A stretch of DNA of 32,000 nt. Source: Thermofilum pendens Hrk 5. Its GTDB lineage: Archaea; Thermoproteota; Thermoprotei; Thermofilales; Thermofilaceae. A program made the position numbers and the translations under genes. The stretch covers positions 270,001-302,000 of the forward strand of contig NC_008698.1 in assembly GCF_000015225.1 (NCBI RefSeq), read 5' to 3'. Below, in pieces: positions 7,040 to 24,266 of this stretch; within the stretch, counting starts at the first letter, position 1, and each line of letters begins with the position of its first letter. The notes beneath the pieces are model-generated. The model searched no databases. It worked only from the letters and a program-made list of their open reading frames with translations, and had not been told where the DNA came from.

Positions 7040-7612
7040 TTAAGACTTTGTCGAAAGTTCCCATAGCTCGTCTCCCAAGTAGTGGATGTTTCTAACAGCC
7101 TTCCCTTTCTGCGCACCTCTAATCTCATCAGAACCCATAATGGCAATGCCCAACGCTATTACGCGGTTCTTCTCTATTTCCCTAACGAGAACCCTGTCTC
7201 CAGGCTTGAATTCGCCGTCGATCTTTTTAATCCCTGGAACCATCACATCTGCGCCGTTAAGGATCCTAGGCACGGCCCCAGAGTCCACGTAGACGTTCGG
7301 AAAAACAGGGTAAACGCTGTTCTTGTAGATGAAGAACAGCGTCGGGACGAGCCCCGCGCTCCTCGTTTTCACGACTGTTAAAACTCCGTCGACGTAGTAC
7401 ATCTCTTCTATTTCCTCGTGCTTGACAGAGGCTACCTCGATTCTCGAAGCCTTCTCGAAGTAGGTGGCGAATACTTCCCCGAGAGAGCTCTTCACATCTT
7501 CCTCTACTTTCTTCCTGTCCTTCTTACTCAGAAGGTACCTCGAAGTTATCTTCAACGCTTGCCCCGACTTGCTCGTAGCTACCACCCTCCACCGTGTAAT
7601 AGGTAACCACAC
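7040..7612 (-). CDS. PUA-domain RNA-binding protein (MCT-1/Tma20-like pre-PUA plus PUA architecture)
   Basis: The C-terminal PUA block is VDSGAVPRILNGADVMVPGIKKIDGEFKPGDRVLVREIEKNRVIALGIAIMGSDEI. The N-terminal RYLLSKKDRKKVEEDV is typical of pre-PUA. The true start is probably internal: a TTG at 7555 reduces the overlap with the upstream gene from 89 to 32 nt. Confidence 0.8.
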   Translation of the reverse strand: MWLPITRWRVVATSKSGQALKITSRYLLSKKDRKKVEEDVKSSLGEVFATYFEKASRIEVASVKHEEIEEMYYVDGVLTVVKTRSAGLVPTLFFIYKNSVYPVFPNVYVDSGAVPRILNGADVMVPGIKKIDGEFKPGDRVLVREIEKNRVIALGIAIMGSDEIRGAQKGKAVRNIHYLGDELWELSTKS

Positions 7613-8105
7613 CCTCCTTATCTACAATGGCGATCACCAACTCCCTATCGCTCTCTAAAGCCCTGCGAAACATGTCCTCGAACTCCGGGAAGCTCACACG
7701 AGTCCCCTCCCTAAGGATCCTCACTAGGAGCCTCCTCGGCTTCCCCTTCTTCTTCCAATCCACCAGGAACTCGTAGGGGTTTACTCCCGGCTTCGCTGGG
7801 AGAGCCCTGTTTCTCAAATCCGTGTAGACGTTCAGCTTAACCCAGAAGTCCGGGTCAAAATTCGACGCCAGCCTAACGATCTCTGGAAACGATAAAGTCC
7901 TTCCTTGGTCGTCTTTAACCTTCAACATCTCGCGGTAAACGAGGTACGCTGCCTCTACTAGTGTAAGCTCTAAGATCTCCCCGCTTAGCATACCGTAGCC
8001 ACGCTGGTACAGTTGCTCCGCGAACTCTTTGTCGAGCACCCTGACGATCCTCCCGTCGAACACCCCCTCCCCGCTAATCTTCGCGACCTCCTGACCCTTC
8101 TCCAC
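7524..8105 (-). CDS. endA: tRNA-splicing endonuclease family protein, apparently the non-catalytic (structural/beta) subunit type
   Basis: 193 aa. EndA-like blocks are LTLVEAAYLVYREML, VYTDLRNRALPAKPG and ELVIAIVDKEGVVTYYTVE. At the positions where catalytic subunits carry Tyr/His/Lys I read W (EFLVDW), no His (RRLLVRIL) and R (SDRELV). GTG start with a TATA-like CTTATTAT about 30 nt upstream. Confidence 0.72.
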   Translation of the reverse strand: MEKGQEVAKISGEGVFDGRIVRVLDKEFAEQLYQRGYGMLSGEILELTLVEAAYLVYREMLKVKDDQGRTLSFPEIVRLASNFDPDFWVKLNVYTDLRNRALPAKPGVNPYEFLVDWKKKGKPRRLLVRILREGTRVSFPEFEDMFRRALESDRELVIAIVDKEGVVTYYTVEGGSYEQVGASVEDNFEVPSE

Positions 8106-17419: not shown

Positions 17420-17572
17420 ATGTCCGAGATAGTGTTAGGCACCCTTGACTTCGTGCTACTACTGCTCGGCACAGCCCTCTTCATCCTCTTGATAGTCATT
17501 GTCGCAATCGAGTACCACAATTGGAGAACGAGGAGACAACTCAGGAAGATAGTGGCCCCTGCCCGCGCGTGA
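17420..17572 (+). CDS. Unannotated 50-aa single-pass membrane mini-protein (hypothetical)
   Basis: Hand translation gives MSEIVLGTLDFVLLLLGTALFILLIVIVAIEYHNWRTRRQLRKIVAPARA, with TGA at 17570-17572. It has a hydrophobic span of about 20 residues followed by a basic cluster (positive-inside-like). It falls below the ORF-track size cut-off and occupies an otherwise empty 390-bp gap. Confidence 0.4.
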   Translation: MSEIVLGTLDFVLLLLGTALFILLIVIVAIEYHNWRTRRQLRKIVAPARA

Positions 17573-18003: not shown

Positions 18004-18039
18004 CTCACGCGCGGGAATACTCGGAGCGGAGCATCCCCT

Positions 18040-18300
18040 CTATTTTCTCTGAGCTATGCGCGACCCGGAGCATATCTCGGGGCATCTGTCCGATAAATCG
18101 TTGCAGATGGACTCGCAGACCGCTTTGCTGTCCTCGCAGATAGACTCGCATTGCTCGGAGAAGGCTCCTTGAGCCTCTGCGCACTCTTCGAGACAATCCG
18201 CGGCTGCCTCCTGACAACGCCTTGAACACTCATCGACGAAATCCATACACGCGGATATGCACTCGTCCTCGGACTTTTCCTTGGGAGCCTTCACAAGCAA
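18040..18300 (-). CDS. Acidic Cys-rich mini-protein with six CX3C motifs (predicted helical hairpin; possible metal-thiolate or disulfide-stapled protein)
   Basis: 86 aa with 12 Cys at residues 14/18, 25/29, 36/40, 51/55, 62/66 and 73/77, so CX3C pairs recur every 11 residues in two blocks separated by AEAQGAF. A 33-nt DNA periodicity is visible (gcagatggactcgca at 18103-18117 versus gcagatagactcgca at 18136-18150). TATA-like AATAATATATAG sits 22-28 nt upstream of the TTG 18300 / GTG 18294 start. Confidence 0.65.
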   Translation of the reverse strand: MLVKAPKEKSEDECISACMDFVDECSRRCQEAAADCLEECAEAQGAFSEQCESICEDSKAVCESICNDLSDRCPEICSGSRIAQRK

Positions 18301-18314
18301 AACCCTAAAAACGG

Positions 18315-18326
18315 CTATATATTATT
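18315..18326 (-). promoter_or_regulatory. TATA box for the CX3C mini-protein gene
   Basis: The minus strand reads AATAATATATAG, centred about 26 nt upstream of GTG 18294 and about 20 nt upstream of TTG 18300. This geometry is consistent with a leaderless transcript. Confidence 0.5.
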
Positions 18327-18485
18327 GCCTCCGATCCTGGTGCGTGTAGAACAGGTACTTCACCTTGGTTGATGGGGCGAGCACGGAGACTTGAGAGAGG
18401 AGCTTCGCGAAGACAGCCCCCGCCCGTATCTGCCAAGCGCTCGGGGGAGGGGGCCGGGCGCCTTTCCCTGCCGGTCTTACCCCTT

Positions 18486-19952
18486 TTATTCTTGTGCCCC
18501 AGCTAGGCGTATCTTCAGCAGTTCTTCGACTAGCTTCTTCGCGGCTGGCTTAGCCTGCGCCTTTGCGGCTGCGAAGCGGTATAGCGCCTCCCAGAGCGTT
18601 GCATCTTCCGCCGCGTGCTCGAAAAGAGAGTCCTGGGGAACCTGGTAGTAGAGCATACCGGCGTTCCTTACGACTCTTACGACCCAACCCTCCTCTACTA
18701 CTCTCTCGTACCAGCCTGGCGGCGCGCCATCGACAGGCATCCTAGCGTAGATACGGGCGTAGTCGCCATGCCCTATGAGCACGAGGTTAAGCAACGCCCC
18801 TGCCACCGGTGCATAAAGATCGAGACGCTGACCATTCTGCCCGGGCTTCCTACCCCTCCTGCCTGGCGCTCCGTAGGCAACGTAGAGCCAGTGCCGAATC
18901 TTCGCGCACCTAGTGACCTTGCCTACGAATGCTACGTACTCCCATGCACGCTCAACCGCGGCGCGGGCATTAGCTATAGCGCTCTCCGCCGGCAAGTAGA
19001 TGTGCTCCTGTCCAACCTTAAAGTAGAGCCATCGAAGCCTTAGGAAGAATTCAAGCTCGCCGTCCCCTAGGAAAGCGGTCGCCAGTGCCACCGAGTCGCC
19101 GTTGAGCTCCTTGCACCTCTCGACGAGTGCACGGAACTCTGCTCGCTTCGTAGCGCCTACAAGTCCTGAAGCCCAGCCTAGCTCATCAGCGTAGCCGTGG
19201 ATGCTCACTTCCCACTTAATGCTCAGCCCGGTGCTACCGAGAATGCCCGCCGTGACACCTATGTCAACGTGGTCGCTTGGAAAGGTTGCGAGCGTGCTTG
19301 GAAGTTGCCAGCTCTGGGTAGTACCGAATTTTATGTCGCTGTAGCGCCCATGAGGGGGTGTCACATCCGTCAGGATCCACCCTCTCTGCAGGCTTCTAAG
19401 CACGTCTGGCGATGTCCTCGCGAGAACCTCCGGGAAACTAGTCTCTGTCCAGAAGCCCTCCAATGGGACGTGTACGATCCAGTCATATGTAGGCTTGTGT
19501 GCGATGACGTGCCAGTTCTCTCTAGGTATGTATACATGCCAGACTTTACCCTTCTTCTCGGCTCTAAGACCGTCTTCTGTTGCATCGACGATTGCCTGTA
19601 GCCTATCGCGTAGCTCTACGACCGCGCTTCCCTCCCTCGGCCTGTTGTCATCGCCTAGCAAGAGGTACTGCCTCAAATCGTAGTCAAACAGCTTGCCGAA
19701 CCTCGGGTAGACGTCGTCCGGCACGACTGTCAGCGCGTGCGCCACGAAGCGCGTAAAGTCCCAGTTAATCGTAGACACCGTGTCGAAGAGGCCGCGGTAG
19801 TGTACCCTGCCCTTCCTCCCGCCCCTGGCTTTCCTCTTATCCTCTGTCCTGGTGGCGTAGAGGCTTAGAGCCGCCCTCCTCCACGTCTCCTCTCTAACCT
19901 TTCTCTCAACCTCTTCATCCCCCATCACGTTCTCTCCAACCATACTTATCAC
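18486..19952 (-). CDS. Hypothetical 488-aa protein, no recognisable domain (Trp/Arg/Ala-rich, Ala/Lys-rich C-terminal tail)
   Basis: An uninterrupted 1467-nt ORF. No P-loop, CxxC, HExxH or other signature that I can recognise. It has 16 Trp by my count and the tail AAAKAQAKPAAKKLVEELLKIRLAGAQE. Possible starts are GTG 19952, ATG 19943 and ATG 19925; the last is preceded by GGAG with 8-nt spacing. Confidence 0.7.
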   Translation of the reverse strand: MISMVGENVMGDEEVERKVREETWRRAALSLYATRTEDKRKARGGRKGRVHYRGLFDTVSTINWDFTRFVAHALTVVPDDVYPRFGKLFDYDLRQYLLLGDDNRPREGSAVVELRDRLQAIVDATEDGLRAEKKGKVWHVYIPRENWHVIAHKPTYDWIVHVPLEGFWTETSFPEVLARTSPDVLRSLQRGWILTDVTPPHGRYSDIKFGTTQSWQLPSTLATFPSDHVDIGVTAGILGSTGLSIKWEVSIHGYADELGWASGLVGATKRAEFRALVERCKELNGDSVALATAFLGDGELEFFLRLRWLYFKVGQEHIYLPAESAIANARAAVERAWEYVAFVGKVTRCAKIRHWLYVAYGAPGRRGRKPGQNGQRLDLYAPVAGALLNLVLIGHGDYARIYARMPVDGAPPGWYERVVEEGWVVRVVRNAGMLYYQVPQDSLFEHAAEDATLWEALYRFAAAKAQAKPAAKKLVEELLKIRLAGAQE

Positions 19953-23486: not shown

Positions 23487-24266
23487 TTAATGATGGTGAT
23501 GGTGGTGATGGTGTAGTTCCTCGTCTTCGTAAGTCTCCTCAGTATACTGGGCTTCTATCCCGGCTATCGCTTCCTGAAGACTTCTGGGTATCTCGACTCC
23601 GTAGGCTTCGAGTATTTTCGCCACGAAGTAGGGGTCGGGAGCCGCCCCTTCGAACTCGTTCTTATCCTCGCCGTTTACCTGTATAACGTTCTTCGGGACA
23701 GCGTACACGCCATACCTGTCCGCTAAATCCGAGAACTCTAGAGCCTCTATCATGTCTCCGTAGATGTTCTTGTTCACCATGGCAAACCTGTGAGCGGCAC
23801 GGACAGCTATCGGGCAATAGGGGCAAGTGGGTGTCACGAATATCATTATCCGGGTAGGCTTAGTCACGTACTTCAAGAGTATCTCCCTGATCTCCGGAGA
23901 AATGTTAACCCTACCCGTAGACGCATCGATGATGTCTTCAACAAACGCGCCGAACTCGTAGCCAGCCGGTATACCGAAGAACCTCACATTCCACTCGTCC
24001 ACACCATGGATGAGTATAGCCGGAAACATGTCTATGCTGTACTTCTTTGCCTCAGGGTCTTTACTCGTATACCTAGTGACGCGGACTTTCCCACCGGATA
24101 CCTGTTGCACAAGGTTTAGTATCTGCTCTGTGTCATCGCAGTAAACACACTCGGAGCCCGGGTCCACGAACCACTTGATGCTCACTGGGTTCTCGAGAGC
24201 CTGAAACATCTGCCTCAAGTCGTTTACGAGTTCCTCATCGTATTCAACAGGCATAGAGTTTACCAC
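23487..24266 (-). CDS. Protein disulfide oxidoreductase (PDO; two thioredoxin-fold units with CVYC and CPYC sites) with a C-terminal His8 tail
   Basis: 259 aa. The N-unit is GSECVYCDD and the C-unit is FVTPTCPYCPIAV...VPKNVI, the architecture of the Pyrococcus/Aeropyrum PDO family. It ends ...TEETYEDEELHHHHHHHH (eight His codons at 23490-23513, mixed CAC/CAT). Start is GTG 24266 or ATG 24254. Confidence 0.88.
   Translation of the reverse strand: MVNSMPVEYDEELVNDLRQMFQALENPVSIKWFVDPGSECVYCDDTEQILNLVQQVSGGKVRVTRYTSKDPEAKKYSIDMFPAILIHGVDEWNVRFFGIPAGYEFGAFVEDIIDASTGRVNISPEIREILLKYVTKPTRIMIFVTPTCPYCPIAVRAAHRFAMVNKNIYGDMIEALEFSDLADRYGVYAVPKNVIQVNGEDKNEFEGAAPDPYFVAKILEAYGVEIPRSLQEAIAGIEAQYTEETYEDEELHHHHHHHH

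Follow-up and report, generated by a model that had tools for sequence, protein, structure and literature searches.

What a protein of 86 residues with 12 cysteines in strict register is for, and whether it is made at all, is the question raised by one short gene in a 32,000-nt stretch of the Thermofilum pendens Hrk 5 genome (contig NC_008698.1, positions 270,001 to 302,000). That whole stretch is the window in what follows, and coordinates count from its first letter. The mini-gene lies on the minus strand at 18040-18300, reading 86 aa from TTG 18300, or 84 aa from the in-frame GTG 18294, to a TAG stop at 18040-18042, with the translation MLVKAPKEKSEDECISACMDFVDECSRRCQEAAADCLEECAEAQGAFSEQCESICEDSKAVCESICNDLSDRCPEICSGSRIAQRK. 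An earlier note, made from the letters and their open reading frames (ORFs), described an acidic ORF whose 12 Cys fall into six CX3C pairs with an 11-residue period, predicted a two-helix hairpin, and pointed to copper storage proteins (Csp) and small Tim proteins as precedents. The reading that we come to prefer, and hold with slightly more doubt than conviction, is that the hairpin is built of three stacked twin-CX3C layers closed by six inter-helix disulfides in the disulfide-rich crenarchaeal cytoplasm.

The Cys positions, re-derived here with an identical result, are 14/18, 25/29, 36/40, 51/55, 62/66 and 73/77, which makes six CX3C pairs, three for each predicted helix. Cys accounts for 14% of the mini-protein versus 0.7% in the other genes of the window and is encoded by eight TGC and four TGT codons. 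Composition-preserving shuffles of the protein reach six CX3C pairs in 539 of 1,000,000 trials with no periodicity required, and the motif C-x3-C-x6-C-x3-C has no second occurrence in six frames of the whole 32-kb window. When the sequence is drawn as a helical wheel, each helix has its six Cys within an arc of 80 degrees at 3.6 residues per turn, 154 degrees at 3.5 and 33 degrees at 11/3, and because the arc is narrowest at 11/3 residues per turn the hendecad is the right description of the repeat; the stripe of Cys on one helical face that had been proposed from the spacing agrees with these arcs. The two halves of the protein are also mirror images in their Cys. The pairs 40-51, 36-55, 29-62, 25-66, 18-73 and 14-77 have positions that always sum to 91, and therefore the pattern is symmetric about Gly45/Ala46. 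The protein is very acidic, with a net charge of about -10. Inspection of its N-terminus finds it hydrophilic and free of any signal-like segment, and a secreted peptide is rejected on that account.

An orthologue is available for comparison. It was reached through synteny, by finding L35Ae and ASCH homologues and then the contigs that encode them, and it is present on six environmental contigs (L013-L015 and L017-L019) as an 81-aa protein with an ATG start, MSDKRDAKKIMDECISQCMDFVDDCHAKCSENASECMEECSEFPGAYSDQCEEICNDNKNACDHICDEFADKCTDICSKTC, encoded between the ASCH and L35Ae genes and directly upstream of L35Ae. On three contigs the gene caller had annotated it as a gene. A second metagenome scan, with the two-sequence alignment of the window protein and the orthologue, added further contigs to the set, and two JGI metagenome contigs are among those that carry it. 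The L35Ae of this lineage is 74% identical to that of the window. The mini-protein and the orthologue align at 51% identity without internal gaps (phmmer E = 6e-17 at Z = 5.8e9), with all 12 Cys retained at identical spacing, so the Cys periodicity, whose loss in orthologues would have told against the earlier description, is kept.

The differences between the two genes have the distribution expected of a protein-coding sequence. At codon positions 1, 2 and 3 there are 28, 24 and 53 of them, the proportions of nonsynonymous (pN) and synonymous (pS) differences are 0.33 and 0.94 (the latter saturated), and of the 12 Cys codons 7 carry synonymous differences. The six environmental variants of the 81-aa form segregate at 13 sites, 11 of them with synonymous third-position changes and the other two with nonsynonymous ones at residues 4 and 6 of the N-terminal tail. 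Read in the other two forward frames, the same 13 changes are nonsynonymous in 13 of 13 and 11 of 13 cases. On this substitution pattern we regard the mini-gene as real and under purifying selection.

Given the single sequence, AlphaFold2 returns the hairpin that the earlier note had predicted, with a stripe of Cys along each helix and a mean predicted local distance difference test (pLDDT) score of 84.5, rising to 90-96 over most of the helices. Helix 1 takes in residues 10-41 (18178-18273, minus strand) and the Cys at 14/18, 25/29 and 36/40; a four-residue turn, EAQG, follows at residues 42-45 (18166-18177, minus strand); and helix 2 takes in residues 46-78 (18067-18165, minus strand) and the Cys at 51/55, 62/66 and 73/77. 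The alignment with the orthologue supports the same division, with Gly45 and Ala46 invariant. In hendecad lettering the a and e positions are Cys, and the h positions are small or hydrophobic, being F/A/A in helix 1 and S/L/S in helix 2. The d positions of helix 1 are partly charged (A/Q, R/K, E), and in helix 2 d is an invariant Ile, every Cys pair there reading C-x-x-I-C. The most conserved segment is at the open end of the hairpin, where residues 12-23 (DECISxCMDFVD) are identical at 11 of 12 positions between window and orthologue. Foldseek against the PDB has no match at E ≤ 0.001; its best is E = 0.72, and the nearest structures, none significant, are generic hairpins such as saposins, WXG100/EsxA and a lengthened ROP with a template modeling (TM) score of 0.55.

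How near the Cys of such a hairpin would come to each other was estimated from an idealized antiparallel hendecad pair. At a distance of 9-10 Å between the helix axes, the six mirror pairs have estimated Cα-Cα distances of 4.6-5.6 Å, a range that in this model would be compatible with disulfides. The hydrophobic content of the mini-protein is low for a protein of a hyperthermophile, and therefore it must be the Cys that stabilize it, by cross-linking or by binding metal.

As we picture the disulfide-stapled form, an acidic cytoplasmic protein of 84-86 aa would fold as one antiparallel helix-loop-helix whose helix-helix interface is a zipper of six mirror Cys pairs, the layers being stacked every 11 residues, or about 16.5 Å apart. 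In a cytoplasm that contains PDO and is rich in disulfides, as is typical of Crenarchaeota, the pairs would most likely be oxidized and link the helices by as many as six disulfides. Such a ladder would stabilize a poorly hydrophobic hairpin at high temperature, a task that falls to two disulfides in the hairpins of small Tim, CHCH and alpha-hairpinin proteins. Were the Cys reduced, the four thiolates of a layer would together make a site for chelating a metal, as in Tim9 and Tim10. The DECISxCMDFVD surface patch at the open hairpin end would be the likeliest site for binding a partner, judging from the two sequences. We favor the ladder because the mirror register sits exactly about the tight turn, because the small residues at the h positions imply close apposition of the helices, and because abundant cytoplasmic disulfides are predicted for crenarchaea universally, PDO serving as the marker (PMC3177088), and a PDO-like gene is present in the window at 23487-24266.

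Several observations weigh against the disulfide ladder. The orthologue ends in C77-S-K-T-C81 (a seventh CX3C, at 4942 in L013 and 5243 in L014) in the place where the mini-protein ends in the basic tail SGSRIAQRK, and its C81, a 13th Cys at i+4 from C77, has no mirror partner and fits a role in metal binding or exchange equally well or better. A related lineage is without the mini-gene, which suits an accessory function in stress or metal handling. Thermofilum-type organisms are presumably anaerobes of reduced hot springs. Acidic residues beside the Cys are found in Csp3 too, and CXXXC motifs within single helices of Csp3 are proven Cu(I) sites (PMC5171941). Finally, the gene caller left the ORF uncalled in two Logan contigs that match the window at 100% identity and appear to be of the same strain.

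A thiolate-lined metal protein with reduced Cys, convergent with Csp, is a serious contender that we nevertheless lean against. It could be realized in two ways. Two hairpins might form a ROP-like four-helix bundle with 24 inward thiolates for the storage or sequestration of Cu(I) or of another soft metal such as Cd, Hg, As(III) or Ag; or each twin-CX3C layer of the monomer might hold one tetrathiolate Zn or Fe, with about 16.5 Å between one site and the next of the three. There is the precedent of the reduced twin-CX3C Tim proteins, which bind Zn 1:1 through four Cys. The density of six Cys per helix exceeds the approximately 4.5 of Csp3, Csp-like acidic residues flank the Cys, the invariant Ile beside each Cys pair of helix 2 offers a potential dimer interface, and there is a weak local likeness to the first Csp3 helix (BLASTP E = 0.003; DUF326 18 bits). 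The unpaired terminal Cys of the orthologue and the patchy occurrence among close lineages, the latter suiting an accessory metal-stress gene, add to the case.

The sequence is less accommodating in other respects. A conserved His/Met entry motif is lacking, and His26 and His64 are in the orthologue alone; the conserved charged d positions of helix 1 (R/K28 and E39) are unlikely inhabitants of a four-helix core; and with three Zn(Cys)4 sites the net charge, already about -10, would become more negative by another 6. The annotated genes of the window include none for copper or other metal homeostasis, which leaves the copper role that had been suggested earlier without support from the neighborhood. 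That the protein is a minimal thiolate-lined hairpin evolved independently of Csp, serving either as a 24-Cys homodimeric store or detoxifier of Cu(I) or another soft metal of hot springs or as three tetrathiolate centers one hendecad apart, is in our judgment somewhat unlikely.

Less plausible again is a redox-active thiol/disulfide or sulfur-carrier protein, which we rate as improbable. Here the Cys ladder would cycle between reduced and oxidized states, or be loaded with persulfide or polysulfide, and would act as a redox buffer, as a partner of PDO or thioredoxin, or as a carrier of sulfane sulfur in a sulfur-respiring archaeon. A twin CX3C motif is known to convert between a reduced form with bound Zn and a disulfide form, the unpaired C-terminal Cys of the orthologue is a possible attacking or resolving thiol, and both PDO and the rhodanese-containing ThiI are encoded in the neighborhood. 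Against that last argument, the neighborhood is a conserved housekeeping gene order and not an operon, so the nearness of PDO, which had earlier been taken as support for disulfides, gives no specific functional link to the mini-gene. The protein is moreover without a CXXC or CPC catalytic motif, helical Cys at i and i+4 form no easy intrahelical redox pairs, and we found no experimental or comparative support for such a role.

Can the protein be a divergent true member of the Csp/DUF326 family, Pfam PF03860, in the form of a half-length homolog that dimerizes? We consider this very improbable. What suggests it is a Pfam DUF326 match of 18.0 bits (E = 0.0028) and a short Cys-driven BLASTP match, in a one-to-one comparison, to residues 2-29 of BsCsp3 (E = 0.003). 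The Pfam score falls short of the gathering score, 20.4, and comes from one stretch, residues 13-26; the orthologue has no DUF326 match at E ≤ 10; and BsCsp3, run as a positive control with its sequence taken from PDB 5FIG, scores 70.3 bits in four stretches. NCBIfam gives no match, including to its "four-helix bundle copper-binding protein". Searches of the PDB by phmmer and by the two-sequence profile of window protein and orthologue list no Csp at E ≤ 10, where Csps recover each other at 1e-7 to 1e-14, and hhalign of the same two-sequence alignment against a Csp3 alignment reports a probability of 1.2%. The spacing is 4-7-4-7, a hendecad, and not the 4-3-4-3 heptad of Csp, and the predicted fold is a two-helix hairpin and not a four-helix chain. 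Membership in Csp/DUF326, a family that the earlier note had named as a precedent, is thus contradicted by the homology tests.

The other searches, whose negatives hold for the collections searched and not for every database, leave the mini-protein equally alone. The Tim family is not among the Pfam matches at E ≤ 10 or the PDB matches, and PHROGs has no match. A word-indexed search of 5.8 billion proteins finds no relative. HMMER against 1.84 billion representative proteins has a sole match, to a 1439-aa protein that is Cys-poor and rich in D/E/Q repeats, which we reject as a compositional artifact. Scans with the single protein, confirmed by tblastn, find nothing in GTDB representative genome contigs, metagenome contigs or plasmids, viral contigs scanned with the two-sequence alignment give no match, and in the literature we found no hexa-CX3C or hendecad Cys hairpin described in archaea. 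By these comparisons the mini-protein matches no Pfam, NCBIfam, PHROGs or PDB family.

The weakest of the rivals, that the ORF is a chance opening in GC-rich intergenic DNA or that the real product is an RNA or is read from an overlapping frame, is effectively refuted by the substitution pattern and retains a negligible probability, despite three open minus-strand frames at the locus, the missed calls in the same-strain contigs, the absence of all five start/sequence variants looked up exactly in a 15-billion-protein collection, and a codon log-likelihood (+2) lower than any 87-codon window of the real genes attains. That score is nonetheless the best of the six frames and above 99% of non-coding frames, and it is low because of the acidic composition with 14% Cys, synonymous codon use being normal: synonymous choice is at the 11th percentile of the real genes of the window, within their range, and the G+C content of third codon positions is 65.5% versus 65.3%. 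The frame at 18005-18229, named earlier as the alternative that might be the one expressed, is 19-23% identical to the orthologue with stops, and the polymorphisms are nonsynonymous in it; the antisense ORF at 18056-18172 also meets stops against the orthologue and has a poor codon score. Because the conservation and the synonymous polymorphism are specific to the mini-gene frame, with Cys kept through TGC/TGT changes, the overlapping and antisense frames are not what selection sees, and Rfam and tRNA scans of the window report no match.

How the gene would be expressed is suggested by a TATA-box-like element, AATAATATATAG, read from the sequence at 18315-18326 on the minus strand. The earlier note had placed a TATA box at leaderless distance, and this is it: the element covers -26 to -15 relative to TTG 18300 and -32 to -21 relative to GTG 18294. 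Its counterpart in the orthologue, AAAATAATAATT, covers -30 to -19 relative to the ATG and is invariant in the six variants. In archaea the center of the TATA box generally precedes the transcription start by about 26 nt, and given this spacing the orthologue is predicted to be leaderless at its ATG. The mini-gene is probably independently promoted and probably leaderless as well. As to its start in the window, GTG appears to fit the TATA element slightly better than TTG; starting at TTG gives a 13-residue N-terminal tail equal in length to that of the orthologue. The L35Ae gene begins 84 bp downstream with its own TATA element and a GGTGAT Shine-Dalgarno-like element; the two genes are separate units, with read-through co-transcription at most.

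The earlier note also saw a 33-nt unit in the DNA and took it as a sign of growth by tandem duplication. An echo does exist. In a repeat search, 18098-18117 and 18131-18150 are 85% identical over 20 nt, and this is the sole detectable 33-nt-spaced similarity, contained within 18098-18150. The two copies are units 4 and 5, both encoding CESIC, and the orthologue has CEEIC and CDHIC at the corresponding places. No unit pair besides these exceeds background similarity, Tandem Repeats Finder reports nothing, and once the Cys codons are set aside, identity among the six units is about 30% and declines from codon position 1 to 2 to 3. A tandem-repeat DNA element is rejected on these results. The six units bear the marks of constraint at the protein level, and an origin of the mini-gene by duplication, for which this one CESIC-encoding echo is the sign, is plausible and not demonstrated.

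The surroundings are those of an ordinary housekeeping region. The window encodes CDC48, FKBP, a proteasome subunit, FttA, a tRNA endonuclease, Moa genes, PRPP synthetase and HypF, and further an M28 peptidase, ThiI, L35Ae (of the archaeal type), ASCH, ValRS, PDO, RpiA and pyruvate kinase. In relatives the order PDO, ValRS, ASCH, (mini-gene), L35Ae, a small ORF, ThiI, M28 and HypF is conserved. The lineage without the mini-gene (L008-L012, with L35Ae 69% identical) has an ORF-free ASCH-L35Ae spacer of 418 bp, at about 4583-5000 in L009, and no remnant of the mini-gene is detectable in that spacer. More distant Thermofilaceae and Thermoproteales genomes have different neighbors. By these comparisons the mini-gene is lineage-restricted and patchy within Thermofilaceae, with two lineages having it and one not, and dispensable. 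A viral or plasmid origin is rejected, there being no viral, plasmid or PHROG matches and the gene order being that of housekeeping genes.

Other features of the same interval were recorded in passing. Immediately upstream of the mini-gene, on the same strand, is an ORF of 488 aa at 18486-19952 with no match in Pfam, PHROG or a phage database and a negative exact look-up; it is missing from the ASCH-to-L35Ae interval in every relative examined, which gives it the look of an orphan gene inserted in this lineage. The two same-strain Logan contigs end by its 3' boundary, at 18364 and 18419, where a G/C-rich tract, gggggagggggccgggcgcc (about 18446-18465), adjoins the breaks. A repeat, a drop in coverage or strain heterogeneity at the insertion could account for them. 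Between L35Ae and ThiI, on the opposite strand at 17420-17572 (plus), there is a strongly hydrophobic 50-aa ORF, MSEIVLGTLDFVLLLLGTALFILLIVIVAIEYHNWRTRRQLRKIVAPARA. It has no Pfam match and a weak PHROG match (E = 0.01), and a gene of 49-51 aa is called at the matching place in most relatives examined (L008-L013, L017-L019), so that position and size recur, and it is probably a real conserved membrane micro-protein. An ASCH homolog, 44% identical, is found in "Nanoarchaeota archaeon NZ13-N" in a different gene context (L020-L022). Elsewhere in the window, a PUA-domain ORF (7040-7612) and a tRNA-intron endonuclease ORF (7524-8105) overlap by 89 nt as listed (7524-7612), probably from over-extension of the start codon of the downstream gene.

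If the structure is confirmed, we would know of no natural alpha-helical hairpin more densely zipped by Cys than the mini-protein, which has six mirror pairs on a strict 11-residue repeat versus two in small Tim, CHCH and alpha-hairpinin proteins. Should the six-disulfide ladder be true, it would be a case of extreme cytoplasmic disulfide stabilization and a ready hyperstable scaffold for protein design. Should the metal protein be true, the thiolate-lined helical bundle of the copper storage proteins would have been invented independently here, and the mini-protein would be the first archaeal Cys-lined metal scaffold based on hendecads. The mini-gene also illustrates selected micro-proteins that gene callers miss and that are absent from very large protein collections. 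Its practical importance is limited by a narrow distribution, to two Thermofilaceae lineages.

Among the known systems that come closest are the small Tim proteins. Twin-CX3C hairpins of that kind carry two inter-helix disulfides when oxidized; when reduced they use all four Cys to bind Zn, and reduced Tim9 and Tim10 bind it 1:1 (PMC3759932). Tim9 and Tim10 share with the mini-protein the antiparallel hairpin and a CX3C on either helix, the two placed in mirror register so that C1 pairs with C4 and C2 with C3, and the innermost layer of the mini-protein, C36-x3-C40-x10-C51-x3-C55, is a twin-CX3C motif. The differences are that a small Tim has one layer with 4 Cys, where the mini-protein would have three stacked layers with 12, that the strict 11-residue repeat belongs to the mini-protein alone, and that there is no sequence or Pfam relationship. 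Small Tim proteins also reside in the mitochondrial intermembrane space, are oxidized by MIA40/Erv1 and assemble into hexameric chaperones; the mini-protein is archaeal, cytoplasmic and without that pathway, and there is no sign of such an assembly.

With Csp1 and Csp3 the likeness is in the many Cys that line the helices, at comparable density in Csp3, in the acidic neighbors of those Cys, as seen in Csp3, and in the weak local similarity to the first Csp3 helix. A Csp is a four-helix chain of 108-133 aa, whereas the mini-protein has two predicted helices in 86 aa. Csp spacing is a heptad 4-3, as in C-x3-C-x2-C-x3-C-x2-C-x3-C of BsCsp3, in contrast to the hendecad 4-7 of the mini-protein, which has no CX2C; and the conserved His-rich mouth and a neighborhood of copper genes are both lacking in the mini-protein. 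The earlier note had called the protein shorter than either precedent and organized unlike them, a description that its 86 aa, two helices and three layers bear out.

Other Cys-bearing hairpins are more remote. The plant alpha-hairpinins, which use a C-X3-C...C-X3-C motif, and the twin-CX9C proteins of the CHCH family, such as Cox17 and Cox19, are short helix-loop-helix proteins with two mirror-paired inter-helix disulfides. They are eukaryotic and secreted or in the intermembrane space, unlike the predicted six pairs in an archaeal cytoplasm, the CHCH proteins have an i/i+10 spacing, and neither group has a sequence relationship to the mini-protein. ROP-like homodimeric bundles and designed hairpins are helical hairpins of similar length that have no Cys-lined interface and to which there is no significant Foldseek match. 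Metallothioneins have about 30% Cys, in CXC, CXXC and CC motifs, and an irregular apo form, versus 14% Cys in CX3C only and a predicted helical fold. Set against all of these, the mini-protein is best described, from its sequence and its model, as a new variant of the Cys-stapled or Cys-lined helical hairpin, neither a small Tim nor a Csp, that resembles a twin-CX3C module repeated three times.

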